63,672 bases of DNA from Kiritimatiellota bacterium (GTDB lineage Bacteria > Verrucomicrobiota > Kiritimatiellia > RFP12 > UBA1067): NCBI GenBank assembly GCA_009778475.1, contig WRJS01000003.1, positions 1 through 63,672 on the forward strand, written 5' to 3'. Under the pieces are notes generated by a model. It did not search any database, was not told the DNA's origin, and saw only the letters and a program-made list of their open reading frames with translations. A program made the position numbers and the translations under genes. Within the stretch, counting starts at the first letter, position 1, and each line of letters begins with the position of its first letter. Positions 11,562 to 63,672 of this stretch are shown piece after piece.

Positions 11562-13937
11562 TCACCTTTGGCTCGCGCGGAAAGGCGACAGCTCCGTCCA
11601 ATCGTAATACCGCAACGCCCCGTGCACGGTGTGCGAGAAAAGGAGGCGTGGCTCGCCACCATTGAGGCGGATCGCCTCGCGCCATGACAACGGGAAACCA
11701 TACTCATAAGAACCTTTCTTGAAACTGCCTTCAAAGGGGTCCCCTTGAGAACCTTCATCCTGCCTTTCCCAATCCTTCGTACATTCATCCCATTTCGTTG
11801 CTTTTACCAATAGCGCTTTAAACACGTCTTTTTCACCTTCTACGGATCTCGAGAACTTGTATGTCGTGCAGCCCCGGTAGAATAATGCATGGATATGCCC
11901 GAAGGCATCATACGCCCAGGCATGATGGGTTGCGATGGCAAGGTCGTCTGCTTCAGCATAGAGGTTCACGCGTTCTTTAAATGTTTCGGACACCGCCGCA
12001 ACGGCGGCCAAGATCTCACGGGTCTGGAACTCAATCATTGAGCGCCCCAGCAGATAGAGCATCATGGCCGCGTTCTCGTTCGTATCCTTGCCGCCGAAGT
12101 TGTAGATGGTGTGGCCTTGTTTTGTGCCTTTTCGGATCTGACCGACCTCGCCAGTCCCGAACACGTCCATCACGACGACGGGCGAGCCGTCCTGCAACAG
12201 TCGCGTCACCTCGTTCGTCAATAAGGGTAAGGGGTTGCTGCCTTTCGAGAAGAGCACGGGGGTAGAGGACAAGCCAGTCGCCACCCCGACCTCGTTTGTC
12301 CATGAACTTTTGCCGCCTTGCGCGAGCAGGAGGGCGGGCTTGCCTTTGGCATCCTTCGGGATGAAGGCAATCATGGGGACGGCACTGGTCATGCCCTCGC
12401 CGTGGTTGACGCGCAAGACCTGCCGCACCTCGCGCATACCGTCGTCGAGCATCGTCTCGGAAAGCGTCTCGACCGGTGCTTTTCCGACGGGGAAATGGTC
12501 GAATTTCAGAGTCTTGCCGATGGCGGCCTTCTGCCCGATGGCCTGCCATGTCGTGGCAAGATCGCGCGTGTCGCGGCCGCGGTGACGGTCGGTCAGCGCC
12601 ACGCGGTCGATACTCATGAGCTCGTCGCGCATCAGATCGAACGTCGTGCGAACTTCCGGCCGGGTGAGCCCCCCGTGGTTTTCCTGAAAGACAGAACCGG
12701 TGGGCGTGCAGAACGTCTCTCTCTCGGTCAGCAACCCCTCCCGGCTGATGGGTGCGGCGGAGATTTCGCGCAACGTAGCGATGTCGAACGGCAAGACCCT
12801 CTTGTCGCCCATCAGCTTGGCACGCATCCACGCCACCGAGCCTTGGAGGTGGCCCTCTTTCCAGCCGTGCGTACCCGGCACGTCGATGAGCGCGAGCGGC
12901 GCGTTGAAGGCCGGTCTGGAAAGGTCGGGCGCCTTGAGACCGAGGACGGCGAGGGCCTGCGTGGCGGCAGCCAGAGTCGCCTGTGTCCCGGCGAAGGGGA
13001 AGAAGTCGTCATGTACCGCGTTCACGCACACGGGCAGTTCCGGTGCGCGCAACAGGAGGAATGCCGTGTGGTTCAGGCCGTAGTCCAGCTGGCCGAAGAA
13101 ATTCTGCTCCGCATCGTGCGGGCCGGTGAGGGCGCAGTGGTCGCGCAGGTTTGTGATGAAACACGAGGGCGCGGCGGCCTTGATGCGCGCGTCCGCGCAC
13201 ATCAGGTACGAGGCGAGCGTCCCGCCGCCCGAGTTGCCCATGACCCCCAGGCGCATGATGTCCGCGTCAGGCAACGCCTCCAGGAAATCAATGGAGCGGA
13301 TGCCGTCCCAGATGCGGAACCGTGCCGTGTTCCAGCCCAGCAGTATCGCGCGCGCACCAATCACGTCGTGCGCAGTGGTGCCCCAGACATCGTTTGAGAG
13401 CTCGATGCGCTCGCCTTGGCTGATCGGGTCGTAGCAGAGCGCGATAAACCCCGCCTGTGCCGCCACCACCCCGGCACGCTGGTACGCGAGCGCGGCCTTA
13501 CCCTCCAGGCTGTGGCCGCACGGGATGAGGATGCACGGGTGCGGCGGCCTGCATTTCGGGCTGTCAGGGCGGTAGAGCAGGGCCGTCACCGTGTGGCCGG
13601 GCTGGCTTTCGTAGCGGACCTTGGTCACGGTGTAACCGTCGCGCTGGACAGTCCCGCCGAAGACAGTGTTCAGCGGTGTGCGTTCCGGGAACCCCCCGAA
13701 CGAATCAACCCACCGTTTATGAATCTCCGCCTGACGCGCCTTGAACGCCGCAGGTTTGCGGCACTCCGCAAACGCCCTGTCCGCCTCGATGTCCTTTTCC
13801 CGTAGTTGCTCATACACGAGGTTGTGCGACGCCATCTCCTGCCCCGGCAGTACCGGCACCGCCAGCCGCTCCGCAACCGTCCCCGCCCGCACATAAACAG
13901 CCGCACCCACCAACAAAACAGCAATGTGTGTTTTCAT
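11562..13937 (-). CDS. Secreted alpha/beta-hydrolase (acetyl-xylan-esterase-like) with long C-terminal extension
   Basis: ATG 13937 follows AAGGAG. Signal peptide MKTHIAVLLVGAAVYVRAG. Nucleophile elbow GVMGNSGGG and context (LLYRPD, PCGHS) are typical of AXE1/CE-type serine esterases. Confidence 0.7.
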   Translation of the reverse strand: MKTHIAVLLVGAAVYVRAGTVAERLAVPVLPGQEMASHNLVYEQLREKDIEADRAFAECRKPAAFKARQAEIHKRWVDSFGGFPERTPLNTVFGGTVQRDGYTVTKVRYESQPGHTVTALLYRPDSPKCRPPHPCILIPCGHSLEGKAALAYQRAGVVAAQAGFIALCYDPISQGERIELSNDVWGTTAHDVIGARAILLGWNTARFRIWDGIRSIDFLEALPDADIMRLGVMGNSGGGTLASYLMCADARIKAAAPSCFITNLRDHCALTGPHDAEQNFFGQLDYGLNHTAFLLLRAPELPVCVNAVHDDFFPFAGTQATLAAATQALAVLGLKAPDLSRPAFNAPLALIDVPGTHGWKEGHLQGSVAWMRAKLMGDKRVLPFDIATLREISAAPISREGLLTERETFCTPTGSVFQENHGGLTRPEVRTTFDLMRDELMSIDRVALTDRHRGRDTRDLATTWQAIGQKAAIGKTLKFDHFPVGKAPVETLSETMLDDGMREVRQVLRVNHGEGMTSAVPMIAFIPKDAKGKPALLLAQGGKSSWTNEVGVATGLSSTPVLFSKGSNPLPLLTNEVTRLLQDGSPVVVMDVFGTGEVGQIRKGTKQGHTIYNFGGKDTNENAAMMLYLLGRSMIEFQTREILAAVAAVSETFKERVNLYAEADDLAIATHHAWAYDAFGHIHALFYRGCTTYKFSRSVEGEKDVFKALLVKATKWDECTKDWERQDEGSQGDPFEGSFKKGSYEYGFPLSWREAIRLNGGEPRLLFSHTVHGALRYYDWTELSPFRASQR

Positions 13938-14127
13938 CTCAAACTCCTTGCGTGTCCCCTTTCCCCAAGGTAGGCTTCATATTTTATACGATTCCTTGCG
14001 TTTATTCCACAGGAAATGTGGCGCAGGAAAATATAGAGTGCAACCTTCGCGGCTCACGGGGACGTTCGCCCTCCAATTGAAAACCTTGTCTCGCCCTCCA
14101 ATTGGGATACAAAACCGAAGCGCATTT

Positions 14128-14229
14128 AACTTGGACGTTGAATATTCTCATGCCCCATTGGCCGCGGTCGCGCCAACGGGGTCCCCTGTGTTGGATATTG
14201 GATATTCCCCGAGGGCTTTCAGCCCTCGG
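14128..14229. repeat. Inverted partner of repeat 10070-10167
   Basis: See 10070-10167. Further related words (aacttggacattggatgttccctgttggatattggatattcc, gggctttcagcc hairpins) follow up to about 14330. Confidence 0.85.
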
Positions 14230-14500
14230 CCTGCCCTCGGGCAGGAATGCCCGAGCCACCTTAACTTGGACATTGGATGTTCCCTGTTGGATATTGGATA
14301 TTCCCAAGGGCTTTCAGCCTTCGCGGCACGCGCAGGGCAAGGCACTGCAATCACTAGTGTACATTCAGGCGCATAAAGAAAGGCAAGCGACTCATAGCAA
14401 CGTGGCAGGTGTATCCCTGTTCGCGATTTTTCCCTCTGCGGGCTGGAATGCCCGCACTACCTTGTACTTCGCAACAAGCCCAATGTTAATCAGATTTGCT

Positions 14501-37384: not shown

Positions 37385-37416
37385 AACACGCTCCGTTGGA
37401 ATGGGCAGGTTGGGGT

Positions 37417-38220
37417 TTATTTCAAAACCTTGAAACTGCCCATCATTTTTTTCACGTCAGGATAAATGTGCGCGTCGTGTTCAGGCTTGATGGCGCTGAC
37501 GATGACAAACGCCTTGCCCGCTTCGACAATGACCCATTGGCGCCAGATGATTCCCGTCTGCGCGTTGATTTCAAAATGCAGGGCGGGGTAGTTGTTGACG
37601 GCGGCCTCTTTCATGTCGGCAGGCGTCACATCTTCTTTAAACATTTTGGCAAACGTTACGGCAAAGTGGTCTCTCACTTTTTTGTGCAAATCGTTCGCGC
37701 CCTCCGGATCATCGGAGGAGTAAGCCCCCATGGTATAGATGTCCATGCCTACGGGGGCGACAGGCGGGCGATAACAGATGCACGCGCCTTGATTGTCTTG
37801 CTCCCATTCGCTTGCCACCTCGATGCTGTAACGCGCCTGTGGCTTCTGCGGTTTGGCGAACACCCAATAACCTCGTGCCGCGTCGTAACGCCACTCGCTT
37901 TGGGTTTGCAGCGCGATGGCATCGAACATTTCCCGCCATGTCGGCTTGTAGAACGCGGGGATGAACGATTTCAGTTGCGTCGCATTAATCTCTTGCGACT
38001 CCGTATGGATGGCGACCTCGCATGCGGCATACAAGAGGCTACAGAAACCGTTAAAACTGCCCAGCATACTTCCGCCTGTCCGTTTTGAAAGGAACGCAGC
38101 CTGCTCTTTTTCCGAAAGCGCCTTGACCGGGCGAGGCGCCTCATCAGCGCCCGCAAAAGGATACCACACGGCAAACATTGGCAGTGCGCAACAAACGCGT
38201 AAGAACGACTTCAACTTCAT
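37417..38220 (-). CDS. Secreted protein of unknown function (AT-richer)
   Basis: ATG 38220 gives MKLKSFLRVCCALPMFAVWYPFAGA (signal peptide). No recognisable motifs. Its stop is 32 nt upstream of paralogue 1. Confidence 0.55.
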   Translation of the reverse strand: MKLKSFLRVCCALPMFAVWYPFAGADEAPRPVKALSEKEQAAFLSKRTGGSMLGSFNGFCSLLYAACEVAIHTESQEINATQLKSFIPAFYKPTWREMFDAIALQTQSEWRYDAARGYWVFAKPQKPQARYSIEVASEWEQDNQGACICYRPPVAPVGMDIYTMGAYSSDDPEGANDLHKKVRDHFAVTFAKMFKEDVTPADMKEAAVNNYPALHFEINAQTGIIWRQWVIVEAGKAFVIVSAIKPEHDAHIYPDVKKMMGSFKVLK

Positions 38221-59636: not shown

Positions 59637-60581
59637 TCACCCGCCACGCATCCTCCTCCGCTGCCGCGCCACAATCCACTCCCCCGCCACATTGCACAAG
59701 AAACTGAAAAACAGCAGGCTCAGCCCCATCGCAAACAACACATGATAATGCGCCGAGCCCGTCATCTGATCCGCCTCCCCCATATCCCCCGCGATCGTCG
59801 CCGTCAGCGTCCGCACCGGCGCGAACAGATTGAAAAACGGCTTCGGGATCTGCGCCGCATTCCCCGACGCCATCCACACCACCATCGTCTCCCCCAGCGC
59901 CCGCATCACCCCCAGCAGCACCGCCGAGAAAATCCCGCTCACCGACGCCGGGATCACCACCCTCACCAGCGTCTCCGCCCGCGTCGCCCCCACCGCATAA
60001 CTGCCCTCACGCAACTCCCGCCCGCTCGCCTGCAACGCATCCTCCGACACACTCACGATCGTCGGCAACGCCATCACCGCCAAGATGACCGACGCCGTCA
60101 GCGCATTCACCCCGCTCGACACCCCCAAGCGATCCTGCATCAGCGGCGCCAGCACCACCAGCGCGAAAAACCCATACACCACCGACGGGATCGCCGCCAG
60201 CATCTCGATCGTCGGCTTCAGCACCTGCCGCGCCCCGAACGGCAGCAGATCACTCATGCACACCGCCGCCAAGATACCCGGCGGCACCGCGATCACCACC
60301 GCCGTCACCGTCACGATAAGACTCCCGCAGAAAATCGCCAACGCCCCGAACTGCGGCGGCTCATGCGTCGGGTACCACGCATTCGACGCAAAAAACCGCA
60401 CCACCCCGCACTGACGGAAAAACGGCAACGCATCACGCGCGATGAAAAAGATAATCGCCAGCACCGCCAGCGCCGCCACCGACGTCACCGCGAACAGCAC
60501 CGCCCGCCCCGCCCACGCCGCCGCCCGCCTCCGCCGCCGCTCCCCCGCCGTCAAGACAATCTGCTCACGCGCGAATCTCAT
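59637..60581 (-). CDS. pstC: Phosphate ABC transporter permease PstC
   Basis: Six TM segments, an EAA-like SGRELREGSYAVGATR motif, and a position upstream of pstA-pstB-phoU. Confidence 0.85.
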   Translation of the reverse strand: MRFAREQIVLTAGERRRRRAAAWAGRAVLFAVTSVAALAVLAIIFFIARDALPFFRQCGVVRFFASNAWYPTHEPPQFGALAIFCGSLIVTVTAVVIAVPPGILAAVCMSDLLPFGARQVLKPTIEMLAAIPSVVYGFFALVVLAPLMQDRLGVSSGVNALTASVILAVMALPTIVSVSEDALQASGRELREGSYAVGATRAETLVRVVIPASVSGIFSAVLLGVMRALGETMVVWMASGNAAQIPKPFFNLFAPVRTLTATIAGDMGEADQMTGSAHYHVLFAMGLSLLFFSFLCNVAGEWIVARQRRRMRGG

Positions 60582-60642
60582 GCCCCCCTCGGTCTCATTT
60601 CCCGCCCCACAATGGGACCGGATGCGAGAATTGAACCAAAAA

Positions 60643-60677
60643 CGTGTTAGGTTTTCATCACATTCGTGTTAGTTTTC
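60643..60677 (-). promoter_or_regulatory. Direct repeats upstream of pstC (candidate Pho-box-like operator)
   Basis: Minus-sense GAAAACTAACACG(9 nt)GAAAACCTAACACG, with repeats 22 nt apart. They lie 62-96 nt upstream of the pstC ATG and are followed by a TTCAAT -10-like hexamer. Confidence 0.3.
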
Positions 60678-60710
60678 CGTTAAAACCACCGCCCACATTC
60701 AGGACAGAAA

Positions 60711-61145
60711 CGTAGAGACGGATGATTATCCGTCTCCAATAAGCAATGCAATGACACGTAGAGACGGATGATTATCCGTCTCCACATGTCATTGCCTTCA
60801 AGAGACGGATAATCATCCGTCTCTACATCTCTGCGCCTTCGTCCCTGTGAACCCCGAAGGGCGAAGTCCTTCCGCATCACAGCGCAGGGCAACGCCCTGC
60901 GTATGGGGCGCACAAAGAATGCGCAAGGCTGTAGGCCTTGCGTCCTTTTGTCCAAGACTTTCAGCCTTGGACATCTTTTATCGCCCGTGTCGTAGGGCGT
61001 TGCCCTACGCTGTGATATGGAAGGCCTTTGGCCTTCGCAGGGGGAAAAAAACGCCATGCGCCATGACAGGCGTAGAGACGGATGATTATCCGTCTCCACG
61101 CATCATTCATTGCCTTCGGGAGACGGATAATCATCCGTCTCTACG
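60711..61145. repeat. Cluster of five 27-nt self-palindromic repeats (gtagagacggatgattatccgtctc) plus an inverted copy of the 129-bp repeat
   Basis: Copies lie at 60711-60737, 60757-60783, 60801-60826 (inverted), 61071-61097 and 61119-61145 (inverted). 60865-61045 resembles the reverse complement of the 63410-63672 unit. Confidence 0.9.
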
Positions 61146-61182
61146 GTATGGGCGGGGAACCCGCAGGGGCGAACCCCTGCGG

Positions 61183-61206
61183 TTAAAAGCGGCGGCGAGC
61201 CGCCGC
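61183..61206 (-). terminator. Rho-independent terminator candidate for the TIR gene
   Basis: Minus-sense GCGGCGG-CUC-GCCGCCGC followed by UUUUAA, 25 nt downstream of the stop at 61231. A second 9-bp-stem hairpin (ccgcagggg/cccctgcgg) follows. Confidence 0.5.
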
Positions 61207-61230
61207 ACTCCAAATGATCTGCGCCCACCG

Positions 61231-63294
61231 CTACTCTTTCTGAGAAGCAGCCGCCAATATAGAAGAAGCCAATAGACAGGCCACAAGTATAAACGCCTGA
61301 ACCTTTTCGTTGGCCGATGCCGATTCTCCCGAAAGTGTACCAACAAACAAAAACATAGACAAAATAATGACACCCACTAAACATCCCAATGACGTGTTTT
61401 TGCCCTTTTCTTTGTGTTTAGGGAAGAAGCCGGGAACCCAACACATGGAAAATATCCCTGTAATAAGCCAGCGAAGAAAAGGAATATCCGGTGTCAGCGC
61501 AATAAACGTGATAACAGCAACAATATATAAAAAAAACGCCATTATTCGTTTCATCTTTCGACGTGTTTCTGTGGCTGCTTTTGCCGCAGTTTCTTTCTCC
61601 CGAATTTCTTTCAATCGGCGACACTCTTTTTCCCATTTCGCCATCCGTTCAGCCGAGTCCCTGTACCCGTTCATTGCGCGAAACTGCTCAGCAAGGTTTT
61701 GACAATCGCGTTCCGTGGAGGCTTTGTTTTCGGCTTGAACCAGCTCGTTGTAATGAACTTCGGGCGCCAAGGCATCACATTCCTCCGCCAGTGCCGCCGT
61801 GTCCCGATACCCGTTCATTGAGCGAAACTGCACCGCAAGGTCTTGGAAATCTTTTTCCGTTGAAGCCTTACTTTTGGCTTGAACCAGCCGATTGTAATGG
61901 ACTTCAACAGCCAAGGCATCACATTCCTCCGCCAGTGCCGCCGTGTCCCTATATCCGTGCATATCTGTATCGCGGAACAGTCCAGCGAGTTTCCGGAGTT
62001 CGGTTTCTGTAGAGGCATTGTTTTTAGCTTGAACCAGTCTGTTGTATTGGTTTTGACAACAGCGATCCCATCTTTGTTTAAGATATTTTTTTAACCTCGC
62101 CCGAGTTTCTGAATCTGCAAAACGGTCAGCCTTTTGAATGTTATTAAGATAAGTATCCGAAATTGGAATTAGACTTTCGCCAAGGGAATCTTCCCGTTGC
62201 ACCCTCCCCTCCACGCACAGTTTGCCGATGTAGGCGGGGGCGTGTTCGGGGGAGATGTCGAGGACTTTGTCGAAATAGTCGCGGGCCTGTTTCCAGTCGG
62301 CATCCTCCAAGAAGAGCCAGGCGCGTTTCATCAGGGATTCCACGCCGGGGGCGGCTGGGGCGGTCGCGGCGGAGGCGCGGCTCGCGGGACGCTCGCCCTC
62401 CATGGTGTCGCGCACCACTTTTTTGATCCCGTGCAGGATGTCTTGCGCGAAGCCGATCCGACCCATGTCCTGTGATTGGAGCATGACCATCTCTTCGGGG
62501 AGGTCGTAGGCGTCCATGTCGCGGTAGCAGGGGATGAGCAGGCGGGAGCGGTCTCTCTTCATCAGCGCGAGGAAGCGGCTCCACTCGTTCTTGACCCAGA
62601 CCGCCTCGAAATGCTCTTTGCGCGTGCCGACGGCGAGCATCACCTTGGCGCTGTTGAGGGCGTTGAAGATGTAGGGCTCGTACTGCCGGCCGAGCTTGCT
62701 CTCGAGCGAGATGCGGGAGAAGAAAACGCGGTATTTCTCTTTCTCGAGCTGGTAGTATAAATCCTGCGCCAGCGCGCTGTCCTTGGTGCGGCTGCCGCCG
62801 TCGGTGGTCTCTTTGTAGCAGATGAAGATGTCGTAGGGCGGCTCTTTGGCGGAGATGGCGAGGATGCCTTTCTGGATCTCGGCGATTGCCCGGGCCTCTT
62901 CCTCGTAGAGGCTTCGGGTGTACTCGTCCTCGGCGTTGCCGAGCGCGGCGAGGTAGTCGGCATCGGTGAGGATGGAGTCGCCTTGGACGCGGTGGCAGGT
63001 GGGGATGCGCTGCCCGGCCTCCTCCACGTATTCGATGCCGTACTTGGACAGCACCACGCCCCAGTGCGCCTCGGCGGAGGACGCGTCGAGGTTGAGGATG
63101 TTCTCGTAGGCGGCGACGGCCTTGTCGAAGTCGTTCTGCCGCCGCAGGTTGTTGGCGCGGTTGAAGAGGTTGGCCTTCTGCTCGTCGGCCGCGCTGGGGA
63201 GCGTCGAGGTCACGCCGCACGAGCCGCATGTCCCGTACGCCTTGCCGGTGGCTTGGATGTCGCCGCCGCATTGTTTGCATTTCAAGGTTGCCAT
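61231..63294 (-). CDS. TIR-domain protein: zinc ribbon + TPR-like + TIR + TPR-like + three 48-50 aa repeats + four C-terminal TM helices
   Basis: ATG 63294 follows AAGGAG. N-terminus CKQCGG...CGSCG. The TIR core is aa ~153-275 (YDIFICYKE...YRVFFSR...AKVMLAVGT...AVWVKNEWSRF), with a W-x-x-x-E motif (E237) at the position of the catalytic Glu of NAD-cleaving TIRs. Repeats are Y417-H466, Y467-H514 and Y515-L561. TM helices lie at aa ~584-683. Confidence 0.8.
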   Translation of the reverse strand: MATLKCKQCGGDIQATGKAYGTCGSCGVTSTLPSAADEQKANLFNRANNLRRQNDFDKAVAAYENILNLDASSAEAHWGVVLSKYGIEYVEEAGQRIPTCHRVQGDSILTDADYLAALGNAEDEYTRSLYEEEARAIAEIQKGILAISAKEPPYDIFICYKETTDGGSRTKDSALAQDLYYQLEKEKYRVFFSRISLESKLGRQYEPYIFNALNSAKVMLAVGTRKEHFEAVWVKNEWSRFLALMKRDRSRLLIPCYRDMDAYDLPEEMVMLQSQDMGRIGFAQDILHGIKKVVRDTMEGERPASRASAATAPAAPGVESLMKRAWLFLEDADWKQARDYFDKVLDISPEHAPAYIGKLCVEGRVQREDSLGESLIPISDTYLNNIQKADRFADSETRARLKKYLKQRWDRCCQNQYNRLVQAKNNASTETELRKLAGLFRDTDMHGYRDTAALAEECDALAVEVHYNRLVQAKSKASTEKDFQDLAVQFRSMNGYRDTAALAEECDALAPEVHYNELVQAENKASTERDCQNLAEQFRAMNGYRDSAERMAKWEKECRRLKEIREKETAAKAATETRRKMKRIMAFFLYIVAVITFIALTPDIPFLRWLITGIFSMCWVPGFFPKHKEKGKNTSLGCLVGVIILSMFLFVGTLSGESASANEKVQAFILVACLLASSILAAASQKE

Positions 63295-63409
63295 GGTTCA
63301 TTCTCCTTTGTCGGTGTTGATGTCGCCCTTTCGGGGTTTTTAAGATTGATGTTGCCCTGCGACACGGCGGAATCTTTTTCAAAGTTTGCCGCCTTCCCAA
63401 TGTCACGCA

Positions 63410-63672
63410 TCACAAGGGCGAAGCCCTTGCGTATCATAGCGTAGGGCATCGCCCTACGACACGGGCGACGAAGAGTGTTCAAGGCTGTAGGCCTTGAACA
63501 AAAGGATGCAAGGCTTTCAGCCTTTCCAGCGCCACGAAACACAAGACCAAAGCCCTTGCGTATCATAGCGTAGGGCATCGCCCTACGACACGGGCGACGA
63601 AGAGTGTTCAAGGCTGTAGGCCTTGAACAAAAGGATGCAAGGCTTTCAGCCTTTCCAGCGCCACGAAACACA
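63410..63672. repeat. Tandem 129-bp hairpin-rich repeat (two full units, array continues past the right edge)
   Basis: Unit 1 is 63410-63538 and unit 2 is 63539-63667; they are near identical. Each unit carries four short GC hairpins (aagggc-gaa-gccctt, gtagggc-atc-gccctac, ttcaaggc-tgtag-gccttgaa, aaggc-tttca-gcctt). Confidence 0.95.

Follow-up and report, generated by a model that had tools for sequence, protein, structure and literature searches.

The reverse-strand gene at positions 61231..63294 of a 63,672-nt stretch of DNA (hereafter the window, which is a whole metagenomic contig of a Kiritimatiellota bacterium) codes for a membrane protein, one of a very large family of modular proteins from gut anaerobes, in which a constant TIR module is joined to interchangeable C-terminal modules. 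The best explanation of its architecture and of the loci of its relatives, to which a probability of about 50% is assigned, is that such proteins would act on an SPFH platform and there link a membrane sensor to a TIR domain that works as an NADase or generates a signal, with their C-terminal cassettes being exchanged. An earlier description of this TIR family was not found in the literature.

The gene is complete, starts with ATG and encodes 687 aa, as deduced from the ORF list, Pfam and AF2; all its parts are given below on the minus strand. The domain order is zinc ribbon, TPR, TIR, TPR, linker repeats and four TM helices, and the AF2 model reaches a mean pLDDT of 86.3 for the whole protein and 88.8 for the N-terminal module alone. 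The zinc ribbon of the original prediction was recovered at aa 1-31 (63202..63294), where C6, C9, C23 and C26 are present and beta strands are seen in the AF2 models; C9, C23 and C26 are each conserved in at least 90% of the family. It is followed by a TPR-like helical head at aa 35-84 (63043..63192; TPR_2 at aa 43-70, 39 bits) with modelled helices at aa 35-52, 56-69 and 74-84, and by a beta-hairpin and a long helix in front of the TIR domain (aa 87-150; 62845..63036). The hairpin and long-helix segment is matched by no Pfam model; it is conserved and modelled with a pLDDT above 90, and the invariant residues of this region include G86, E88, Y89, P98, R102, Q141, I144 and L145. Beyond the TIR domain, a disordered Ala/Pro/Ser linker (aa 300-317; 62344..62397; pLDDT below 50 at aa 300-311) leads to the second of the two predicted TPR-like segments (aa 318-362; 62209..62343; TPR_6 at aa 319-350, 30 bits). 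Its AF2 helices span aa 318-330, 334-347 and 352-362, and this unit closes the host-like constant module.

The TIR domain itself covers aa 156-299 in the AF2 fold (62398..62829). Searching Pfam, one of the checks proposed together with the original prediction, returned TIR_2 (PF13676) at aa 156-267 with E=5.7e-11; its score of 43.4 bits exceeds the gathering cut-off, which is 28. In Foldseek, the best PDB matches of the flavodoxin-like fold were AbTir (TM-score 0.78), SARM1 (0.67) and SPARTA TIR-APAZ (rmsd 2.3-2.9); these three, MyD88 and plant TIRs were all matched with a probability of 1.00. The motif in which a catalytic-type Glu had been anticipated reads W233-V-K-N-E237 (62584..62598), the codon of the putative catalytic E237 lying at 62584-62586. 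In an alignment of 54 family sequences, W233, V234, N236, E237 and W238 are invariant (WVxNEW motif), and E237 is aligned with the Glu of the 'WCLMEL' motif of the plant L6 TIR. By its fold and its catalytic-type Glu, the domain is classed with the enzymatic, putatively NAD-cleaving TIRs.

The TIR fold, the TIR_2 membership and the W-x-x-x-E Glu are shared with AbTir, Thoeris ThsB, SPARTA TIR-APAZ and SARM1. Unlike in known NADase TIR proteins, however, the TIR of this family sits between a zinc ribbon-TPR head and a TPR, and a membrane or ectodomain module follows in the same polypeptide. The NCBIfam model Thoeris III ThcB4 scored only 21.3 bits against a cut-off of 220, and PADLOC found no match to a TIR system. 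A Thoeris-type effector (ThsA-like, SIR2-SLOG or Macro-TM) is not adjacent to the gene in the window; homologous loci have instead two other genes, termed A and B here.

The segment that follows the constant module (aa 366-413; 62056..62199), the NYQKAxRFAD region, is helical and low in GC3 (0.28-0.38). A family consensus can still be drawn for it, so that conservation persists past the codon-usage break described below. Next come the three predicted repeats of 48-50 aa, helical hairpins in tandem that start at aa 417, 467 and 515 (61621..62046; DNA repeat families D1 and D2), are 71-77% identical at the DNA level and are modelled with a pLDDT of 93-98. The protein ends with four TM helices at aa 584-601, 607-624, 636-654 and 667-683 (61246..61545), which agrees with the membrane anchor proposed at the outset and is supported by hydropathy, AF2 helices and charge; the hydropathy of TM2 (aa 607-624) is weaker than that of the other three. 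The basic loop PKHKEKGKNTS (aa 625-635) between TM2 and TM3 is predicted to lie on the cytoplasmic side and thereby fits an N-in/C-in topology, in which the outside loops have only 5 and 12 aa. No relationship was detected between this TM bundle and the partner protein B. The gene product is an inner-membrane protein with its whole N-terminal part in the cytoplasm and the C-terminal four-helix bundle as anchor.

The N-terminal ~365 aa define the family, which comprises at least 3,900 clusters at 50% identity (3,911 at E<=1e-30); a word-index search gave more than 8,000 matches. Over aa 1-362, the window protein is 55-84% identical to thousands of proteins. Between members, this constant module is 55-85% identical, with 52 invariant columns that the window protein shares, and the C-termini are highly variable. 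Most commonly, the C-terminus consists of one TM helix and an extracytoplasmic domain, and this ectodomain/1-TM/TIR layout was found in 61 of 102 relatives. The C-terminal domains encountered in the family include DUF6273, RCC1, SH3_3, FGE-sulfatase, BspA-LRR, L12-CTD inserts and TM bundles. Helical repeats of 48 aa with the signature 'GY(K/R)D...C' occur after the second TPR in many members, in 1-5 copies, and 2-6 TM helices terminate about 18 of the 102 genome members as well as many of the top matches. The idea of a distinct single-gene design does not hold, since the repeat spacer is family-wide and multi-TM tails recur. Of 76 loci, 28 hold tandem arrays of family genes. Searches of phage and plasmid collections gave no family member, and the one locus of a cultured isolate that was examined has an Rhs toxin and glycosidases as neighbours and is not part of a classical defence island.

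The DNA around the window gene carries the expression signals that the original prediction had listed, namely a Shine-Dalgarno sequence AAGGAG 8 nt before the ATG (63303..63308, minus strand) and, 25 nt past the stop codon, a terminator-like GC-rich hairpin of 7 bp followed by TTTT (61185..61206, minus strand). Both were read from the sequence; the hairpin is not listed by the terminator scan, its T run being too short for the criterion. Downstream of the gene, a perfect 22-nt palindrome, GAGACGGATRATYATCCGTCTC, is present in five copies (60715..61141; repeat family D4), where the expected number is 0; the rest of the window contains no copy. Upstream, two tandem structured repeat elements of ~129 nt (63380..63637; D3, 90% identical) have a fold z-score of -5.2, and the contig terminates within their array, 378 nt upstream of the start codon. 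An inverted partial copy of this element lies downstream of the gene (60855..61037; I1, I2, D6, D7) and includes a sub-threshold match to Acido-Lenti-1 at 60991-61035. The gene is bracketed by inverted repeats, as had been noticed before, with arms at 60925-61035 versus 63414-63524 and 63543-63653 that extend over 111 nt and are 82-83% complementary. The downstream neighbours are pstCAB. In Kiritimatiellae-like relatives, the pstCAB synteny is kept and no such TIR gene is found within 10 kb. Judged by this absence from the syntenic pst loci of relatives, the TIR gene is accessory.

The usual operon order in the family is A->B->TIR(n). Protein A is a soluble, flotillin-like SPFH protein of the YdjI/SamI type, which combines Band_7_1 (E about 1e-36 to 1e-40) with a double zinc ribbon or SHOCT. 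Protein B is a conserved 4-TM protein of ~230 aa with a conserved cytoplasmic tail, RYSDPMS...RNxKCKxLK, and without a database match. Neither the SPFH protein A nor the 4-TM protein B is listed among the effectors in the 2025 systematic TIR survey, and no PADLOC 2.0 model matches the TIR protein, A or B. The neighbourhood check contradicts the view of a stand-alone gene: A/B are carried by about 52 of 76 TIR-seeded loci, both are present in 21 of the 29 loci that are flanked by 3 kb or more on both sides, and in the reciprocal test the B-seeded loci contain a TIR-family gene, often in tandem arrays, in 8/8 cases and A in 7/7 cases with upstream DNA. A and B are also present at the loci of the closest homologues (L079 and L081), upstream of the TIR gene in L079, and in the same L079 operon the zinc ribbon-TPR head is found on a non-TIR S1-domain protein as well. 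In the 63.7-kb window, A and B were not found. The earlier statement that there is no partner in view is correct to the letter but carries no information, since only 378 nt of contig precede the start codon and A and B would be expected just where the contig stops.

It may nevertheless be that the window copy works without A/B, or with copies encoded elsewhere, given that the canonical B-TIR spacing of about 15-125 nt is replaced here by at least 378 nt of repeats and that A/B are missing within 10 kb in 6 to 8 of the 29 well-flanked family loci, about a quarter. Taken further, these observations would describe a self-sufficient effector along the lines of the single-gene design first proposed: a membrane-tethered TIR NADase whose 4-TM bundle senses membrane damage or phage entry and which depletes NAD+ unaided by an SPFH protein or B. 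The Shine-Dalgarno sequence and terminator-like hairpin of its own, the structured upstream repeats with terminator-like hairpins in place of a tightly coupled B, the intact catalytic motif and a member from a Phycisphaerales MAG (L001) that is not among the A/B loci despite 10 kb of upstream sequence are all in line with such an effector. It is still considered unlikely, at perhaps one chance in a handful, since the absence of partners cannot be scored at the end of a contig, the reciprocal linkage of A, B and TIR is very tight, and the zinc ribbon-TPR head of the window protein is as conserved as in operon-encoded members (84% identity over the N-terminal module to P0002, whose gene follows A and B).

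The closest known counterpart of protein A in the homologous loci belongs to the PspA-YdjGHI (SamGHI) system of Bacillus subtilis. A is a YdjI-type Band_7_1 protein with C-terminal zinc ribbons, and its comparison with B. stercoris YdjI gave E=9e-14 and the same architecture (Gly/Met-rich linker, C-terminal zinc ribbons). In B. subtilis, YdjI/SamI depends on partners in the membrane and is the organiser of a stress complex (PMC8581546; 10.64898/2026.02.06.704340), and YdjI reaches the membrane only together with zinc-ribbon and TM partners (PMC8581546). By analogy, the recruitment of an SPFH scaffold by membrane proteins (PMC8581546) is likely a logic common to both systems. Like YdjG, the family TIR proteins are membrane proteins with an N-terminal zinc ribbon; the similarity of the window protein is weak and confined to the first zinc ribbon of YdjG (33% over 48 aa, pairwise E=2e-4), and YdjG, which has an NTF2-like domain, has neither TIR nor TPR, unlike the family proteins.

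These likenesses could be taken to mean that the module serves envelope stress or membrane organisation and not immunity, with the SPFH protein and its partners monitoring the membrane and the TIR domain acting as an oligomerisation scaffold or as a metabolic brake that lowers NAD+ under stress, all within normal physiology. The lack of a PADLOC match would be compatible with such a function, and so would the window variant, which has no ectodomain and can therefore sense only the membrane itself. The proposal is rather improbable in view of the family loci. PspA and the TPM-domain protein YdjH (tblastn, B. stercoris queries) were found in 0 of 91 family loci and not in the window, and B has no similarity to YdjH. 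The arrays, C-terminal diversity, DGRs, cassette turnover and patchy distribution of the family are hallmarks of conflict or recognition systems and not of housekeeping modules for stress. Arrays, hypervariable tails and DGRs of the kind seen here are not part of the Ydj system.

The dominant layout of the family, with a variable ectodomain (including LRR), one TM helix, a cytoplasmic TIR and multiple paralogues per genome, recalls animal Toll-like/IL-1 receptors. In single-TM members, the number of K+R residues is 6.25 before the TM helix versus 1.74 after it (58/61 members), and from this bias the TIR is predicted to be inside and the variable domain outside. Compared with Toll-like receptors, the polarity is reversed (N-in, with an N-terminal TIR) and the TIR is an enzymatic-type domain that has the catalytic Glu; the window protein, moreover, has four TM helices and no ectodomain. 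The resemblance is architectural, with common descent evidenced for the TIR fold only.

Five members at four loci (two in L056, one each in L064, L072 and L074) carry a DGR variable region at the tip of the ectodomain, together with bAvd, TR and RT. The template base at TR/VR mismatches is adenine in 16/17, 17/20, 21/21, 18/21 and 17/18 cases. For the window gene, no VR/TR repeat pair was detected in 60400-63672, and neither RT nor bAvd is present in the window. DGR-diversified TIR, CHAT and STAND proteins have been proposed as conflict-system sensors (Dore et al. 2024, PMC10907252), and a subset of the present family likewise couples a DGR-hypermutated C-terminal binding domain to TIR. The targets in that study come from multicellular bacteria and are STAND-NTPase or CHAT-TIR proteins (Dore et al. 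2024, PMC10907252), whereas the family described here has no NTPase, places its variable domain extracytoplasmically behind a TM helix and is partnered with SPFH and B.

An outward-facing variable domain might also bind partners of the gut or termite environment and signal cell-cell, host or substrate contact inward through the TIR domain, the window gene then being a degenerate, ectodomain-less member. The ectodomains of the family (BspA-LRR, SH3, DUF6273 and lectin-like DGR targets) are of types characteristic of adhesins and surface proteins in gut Firmicutes, DGR targets frequently serve in adhesion or ligand binding, and the family is concentrated in MAGs from gut, rumen and termites. Little weight is given to surface recognition of this kind. 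An invariant catalytic-type TIR is unexpected for simple adhesion, about a quarter of the members (RCC1-propeller type) are predicted to be cytosolic, and the 4-TM variant recurs in many lineages and is thus not a degenerate one-off.

The internal compositional break that had been suspected in the window gene was examined by GC and codon analysis and turned out to be sharp, to affect synonymous sites and to lie after codon 365, at the constant/variable junction (62194..62205, minus strand; nt ~62200). The 2-lnL support interval of the maximum-likelihood change point covers codons 363-367; across it, GC3 falls from 0.89 to 0.43, with an LLR of 85.7, whereas 500 permutations reached 8.1 at most. 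Ile is encoded by ATC in 19/19 cases before the break and in 1/15 after it, and Cys by TGC in 8/8 and 0/9 cases, respectively. The other genes of the window have a GC3 of 0.77-0.95. The N-terminal part of the gene matches the codon usage of the host and the C-terminal part does not. To this extent the proposed chimera was borne out; it is not a one-off, since a GC3 drop at the same junction is family-wide, with higher values in the N-terminal part in 73/77 members. Change points with LLR>15 were obtained in 25/102 members, all in one direction. The N-terminal module, A and B have a host-like GC3, and the family C-termini stay below the host. Between the window gene and L079, a nucleotide identity of 80% extends to nt 1154 and is then lost.

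This recurring drop points to turnover of C-terminal cassettes, and the break would mark the junction where recombination with AT-richer DNA replaces them. A donor of the C-terminal cassette of the window gene was not found, the best match to the cassette being 35% identical, and the lower C-terminal GC3 could in part be due to selection that is relaxed or of another kind, and not to transfer. That the break is merely a chimeric metagenome assembly, or the gene a decaying remnant, is highly improbable, for even though the gene lies at the repeat-rich end of a metagenomic contig, the conserved N-terminal module could share k-mers between organisms (compare its 80% nucleotide identity to L079) and some family copies are split or frameshifted (L010, L039 and L058), the ORF is intact and in frame over the junction with all family-invariant residues present, host-like high-GC sequence on both sides of the low-GC stretch would require two chimeric joins, the same-direction GC3 drop is found at the homologous junction in 25 independent assemblies, and the C-terminal part is modelled with confidence as repeats typical of the family. 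A constant N-terminal part with variable C-terminal cassettes, a sharp GC drop and paralogue arrays are likewise known from Rhs/CDI-type polymorphic proteins; Rhs cores are GC-rich and their tips AT-rich. In the TIR family, by contrast, the enzymatic domain lies in the constant part and the variable part is a membrane or sensor module; a secretion signal, a toxin-immunity pair and Rhs/filamentous repeats are all absent. The likeness is only an analogy for the mode of family evolution.

In the preferred explanation of a membrane sensor coupled to a TIR enzyme, the variable C-terminal module would be the sensor, a role suggested by the DGR variable regions at the ectodomain tips. The window protein would sense a perturbation of the membrane or envelope, and relatives with ectodomains would sense an external ligand. 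By analogy only, the zinc ribbon-TPR head would dock the protein to a sub-membrane A/B platform, and a stimulus, likewise assumed by analogy, would let the TIR domains cluster. Once clustered, the TIRs would cleave NAD+ or produce a signal derived from ADP-ribose, and the cell would be arrested. The overall logic would be that of an immune receptor or of abortive infection.

Given its modular tails and flotillin-like neighbour, the family resembles a repertoire of bacterial receptors. It is conceivable, as a tentative and more far-reaching proposal, that it represents an undescribed class of bacterial transmembrane TIR receptors, in which a constant, cytoplasmic zinc ribbon-TPR-TIR module is docked to an SPFH platform (A) via a novel 4-TM adaptor (B) and equipped with an exchangeable set of sensors. 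Paralogue arrays and the horizontal replacement of cassettes, the latter visible as the GC3 break, would diversify this set, with DGR hypermutation adding to them in some lineages. If so, bacteria would possess in this family an equivalent of a diversified repertoire of pattern-recognition receptors, and the window gene, in a Kiritimatiellae-like PVC bacterium, would be the variant that senses the membrane and lacks an ectodomain.

TIR domains are central to animal, plant and bacterial immunity, and to our knowledge the bacterial TIR systems described so far act in the cytosol, either as sensors or as generators of signals. The TIR gene of the window (61231..63294, minus strand) is an intact open reading frame of 687 aa with the anatomy that had been read from the sequence. 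The protein, a bona fide TIR_2 member, starts with a four-cysteine zinc ribbon (C6, C9, C23, C26) and carries TPR units at aa 43-70 and aa 319-350 and a TIR_2 domain at aa 156-267, which scores 43.4 bits in Pfam against a cut-off of 28. Three 48-50-aa repeats start at aa 417, 467 and 515 (DNA copies 71-77% identical), and four C-terminal transmembrane (TM) helices at aa 584-601, 607-624 (weaker), 636-654 and 667-683 were located by hydropathy, charge distribution and an AlphaFold2 model (mean pLDDT 86.3). Because the loop between the second and third helices is basic (PKHKEKGKNTS), the topology is N-in/C-in and leaves just 5 and 12 residues in the two outside loops. The ribosome binding site and terminator ascribed to the gene are present as a Shine-Dalgarno-like AAGGAG 8 nt 5' of the ATG and a terminator-like 7-bp GC hairpin plus TTTT 3' of the stop codon.

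The TIR domain looks enzymatically competent, as judged from alignment and predicted structure. The proposed catalytic glutamate, E237, aligns with the Glu of the flax L6 TIR WCLMEL motif and is invariant, together with W233, V234, N236 and W238, among 54 aligned family members. A Foldseek search with the full-length protein was swamped by generic TPR matches and was repeated with the N-terminal module alone; a separate model of aa 1-300 (pLDDT 88.8, pTM 0.77) matched AbTir (TM-score 0.78, rmsd 3.1), SARM1 (TM-score 0.67) and SPARTA TIR-APAZ (rmsd 2.3-2.9), each with probability 1.00.

The first ~365-400 aa, here called the N-module, match more than 8,000 proteins in a word-indexed search, and an exhaustive search with the N-terminal query returned 3,911 50%-identity clusters at E<=1e-30. 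Database names of these proteins are only 'TIR domain-containing' or 'TPR repeat' proteins. Despite overall differences between clusters, identity over aa 1-362 is 55-84%, and the C-termini comprise DUF6273, RCC1 propellers, SH3_3, FGE-sulfatase, BspA-type LRR, inserted L12 C-terminal domains and TM bundles. In a set of 102 members drawn from species-representative genomes, a single TM helix with more than 100 aa behind it is found in 61, and 23 lack TM helices. The window protein had been proposed as a distinct single-gene design, a claim that does not hold, since about 18 of these 102 relatives likewise end in 2-6 TM helices and the 48-aa repeats are a family-wide linker of variable copy number. 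In the single-TM class, Lys+Arg amount to 6.25 before the helix versus 1.74 after it (58 of the 61 members), which predicts a cytoplasmic TIR module and a variable domain outside the cell. In 28 of 76 homologous loci, 2-4 paralogues lie in tandem and in the same orientation. A tblastn search of phage and plasmid collections with the N-module gave no match, so that phage or plasmid carriage is not claimed.

Several loci contain irregular copies. In L081 (2501-3967; also in L082 and L083), a separate 488-aa gene directly upstream of a complete TIR-family gene begins with the second TPR segment of the constant module (query aa 318-399) and continues with RCC1 repeats. It may represent a C-terminal cassette that was displaced or orphaned. 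In L010, L039 and L058, family copies are split or frameshifted. An HI1420-type antitoxin gene (PF21716; L081 6506-6760) lies directly downstream of the TIR-family gene. A mobile-island context is hinted at by the tyrosine integrases and serine recombinases repeatedly seen close to family loci (L073, L074, L075, L015).

The compositional break suspected within the window gene is real. A likelihood test places the change point after codon 365 (support 363-367; window nt ~62200), with a log-likelihood ratio (LLR) of 85.7 versus a maximum of 8.1 in 500 permutations, and GC3 drops from 0.89 to 0.43. Isoleucine is encoded by ATC in 19/19 cases before the break and in 1/15 after it. Amino-acid composition was rejected as the source, because codons for the same amino acids differ at their synonymous third positions. 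As the remaining window genes have a GC3 of 0.77-0.95, the N-terminal part is host-like and the C-terminal part is not. The original prediction of a one-off chimera could not be upheld: the same test on the 102 members gave 25 with LLR>15, all with the higher GC3 in the N-module, and mappable change points fall at query aa 279-402. In 77 members with enough neighbouring genes, GC3 of the N-module is on average 0.03 above the host and that of the C-terminal part 0.08 below it (N>C in 73 of the 77), and the upstream partner genes A and B, described below, are host-like. Hosts of high GC content (the window, L077, L010 and L001) show the effect most strongly. At nucleotide level, the window gene and its closest relative, P0002 of locus L079, are 80% identical over nt 1-1154, beyond which the similarity is lost. 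We read these breaks as probable traces of recurrent C-terminal cassette replacement by recombination at the constant/variable junction from an AT-richer source pool; differing selective regimes may add to the drop. The break in the window gene would thereby become a readable recombination scar. A search for its donor with aa 372-687 alone returned only three weak matches, the best 35% identical, and no donor lineage can be named. Some family members (P0020, aa 380-445; P0111, aa 377-440) carry ribosomal protein L7/L12 C-terminal-domain inserts (84-89 bits) at the linker position where the low-GC segment of the window protein starts. Elsewhere in the window, a 230-aa ORF (37396-38088, plus strand) has a GC3 of 0.53 versus 0.77-0.95 in the other long ORFs and could be another foreign gene or spurious.

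Some relatives appear to diversify their C-termini by diversity-generating retroelements (DGRs). Immediately downstream of family genes, an ORF resembling the accessory gene bAvd is found repeatedly. In L074, the variable region is formed by the 3' end (12424-12550) of the TIR-family gene and is 87% identical to a template repeat (13117-13243); bAvd lies between the two, a YMDD reverse transcriptase follows, and the complete cassette spans 12424-14477. Complete cassettes were also found in L056, L064 and L072, and one template repeat of L056 serves two paralogous TIR-family genes. Adenine is the template base at 16/17, 17/20, 21/21, 18/21 and 17/18 of the mismatches between template and variable region in five members from four loci, which identifies the ectodomain tips of these members as DGR variable regions and putative diversified sites of ligand binding, in favour of a sensor role of the variable part. 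An earlier paper (PMC10907252) proposed DGR-diversified sensors coupled to TIR effectors, but for STAND/CHAT proteins of multicellular bacteria and not for the architecture of this family. The window gene itself has neither an ectodomain nor a DGR.

Clustering of all neighbouring ORFs of the 76 loci revealed two partners, A and B, each in about 52 of them, co-directional, mutually adjacent and mostly directly upstream of the TIR gene or genes. Both are present in 21 of the 29 loci with at least 3 kb on either side. A belongs to the SPFH/Band_7_1 proteins (E 1e-36 to 1e-40) and ends in double zinc ribbons or, in one case, in a SHOCT domain. B is a protein of ~230 aa with about four TM helices, whose cytoplasmic tail is conserved (RYSDPMS...RNxKCKxLK); it gave no match in Pfam, NCBIfam, PADLOC or PDB. 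A reciprocal search seeded with a single B sequence found a TIR-family gene downstream of B in 8/8 loci, mostly within 30-125 nt, and A in 7/7 loci with upstream DNA, covering Treponema, Chitinispirillia and several Clostridia including the cultured [Clostridium] aerotolerans DSM 5434. In the latter (L180, 37-6693 and 8801-12455), a 2,218-aa Rhs-repeat protein and two small ORFs immediately precede the A-B-TIR operon, and A carries the SHOCT domain instead of zinc ribbons. The four-helix tail of the window protein is not a fused B domain (hhalign probability 0.1; blastp also against).

In L079, A and B are followed by a zinc ribbon-TPR-S1 protein and then by the TIR gene, whose product is 84% identical to the window protein over the N-module. 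Because the S1 protein carries the zinc ribbon-TPR (ZnR-TPR) head of the family (E=2e-7), this head is a reusable module and plausibly a docking module. The 247-aa S1 protein (1009-1752), between B and the TIR gene, has an S1 RNA-binding domain in place of the TIR and a second, C-terminal zinc ribbon; its GC3 is 0.30 versus 0.70-0.74 for A and B on the same contig.

The window encodes neither A nor B, and no partner of its gene is in view, as originally noted. Set against this, most well-flanked family loci have both partners and the contig ends within a tandem repeat pair at 378 nt upstream of the start codon, so that the orphan look may be a contig-edge effect; that the window copy acts autonomously as a single gene is doubtful. 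An exact-protein look-up for P0001, aimed at DNA upstream of the window gene, returned no contigs. The repeats flanking the gene, which had also been predicted, are a ~129-nt multi-hairpin element (RNA fold z = -5.2) in two tandem copies upstream (63380-63637) and an inverted partial copy downstream (60855-61037). They occur neither in any fetched locus nor in the rest of the window, and a metagenome scan with a 24-nt core recovered only a 27-nt hairpin in six unrelated contigs free of TIR, A or B genes. Rfam gave only sub-threshold matches in the gene flanks, among them the Acido-Lenti-1 sRNA motif at 60991-61035 (29.8 bits versus 37); a MIR6274 match was a palindrome artefact. Between the TIR gene and pstC (60715-61141) lie five copies of a perfect 22-nt palindrome, GAGACGGATRATYATCCGTCTC, with none elsewhere in the window and 0 expected by chance, a candidate REP/MITE-like element or protein-binding site. 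For PstC, PstA and PstB of the window, Kiritimatiellae-like PVC MAGs have counterparts with 71-83% identity. The gene is accessory here, since six such relatives retain the synteny downstream of pstCAB but lack a TIR-family gene, A and B within 10 kb. JGI samples Ga0123353 and Ga0123356 are the source of the nearest homologues, and their identifiers turn up again in MAGs from both the B-seeded and the TIR-seeded set.

Thousands of family members thus combine a cytoplasmic enzymatic-type TIR with either a membrane anchor or a variable ectodomain, in some cases hypermutated by DGRs, and are genetically linked to a flotillin-like SPFH scaffold. In the mechanism that we favour, at about even odds, the ZnR-TPR head would dock to the SPFH/B platform, by analogy with the recruitment of YdjI by membrane partners (PMC8581546; 10.64898/2026.02.06.704340), the C-terminal module would detect a membrane or external cue, and clustering of the TIR domains would then set off NAD+ cleavage or signal production. 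More far-reaching, and with a probability of roughly 0.3, is the proposal that the family forms a bacterial repertoire of transmembrane TIR receptors assembled on an SPFH platform. In a comparison with the Bacillus pspA-ydjGHI locus, located via a published primer sequence, A matched YdjI (E=9e-14), with a Gly/Met-rich linker and terminal zinc ribbons in common. B is unrelated to YdjH, and neither PspA nor YdjH was found in any of 91 family loci. The SPFH partner type is the sole feature shared with the Ydj/Sam module, and a non-immune envelope-stress role is rather unlikely. Surface-recognition signalling as the function of the family is quite improbable. A double assembly chimera as the origin of the window gene is unlikely, because its reading frame is unbroken, no invariant residue is lost, the low-GC stretch is flanked by host-like DNA on both sides and the GC3 pattern is seen again in independent assemblies.

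PADLOC gave no meaningful match for the TIR protein, A, B or the extra operon genes, and NCBIfam only ThcB4, far below threshold, for the window protein, which by these tests is not a Thoeris protein. In the searchable literature, whose coverage is incomplete, no paper was found that links SPFH with TIR or describes the family architecture; 'Tir' in a PSP paper denotes the unrelated CesT/Tir chaperones. Since the family is plentiful in human-gut, rumen and termite-gut anaerobes and includes at least one cultured strain, the idea is directly testable. If outside-in sensing is true, it would represent a route of bacterial TIR signalling that we did not find described in the searches made, provide a concrete client for SPFH proteins in conflict or stress biology and form a parallel to raft-associated TLR signalling and to the SPFH(HIR)-associated immune receptors of plants.
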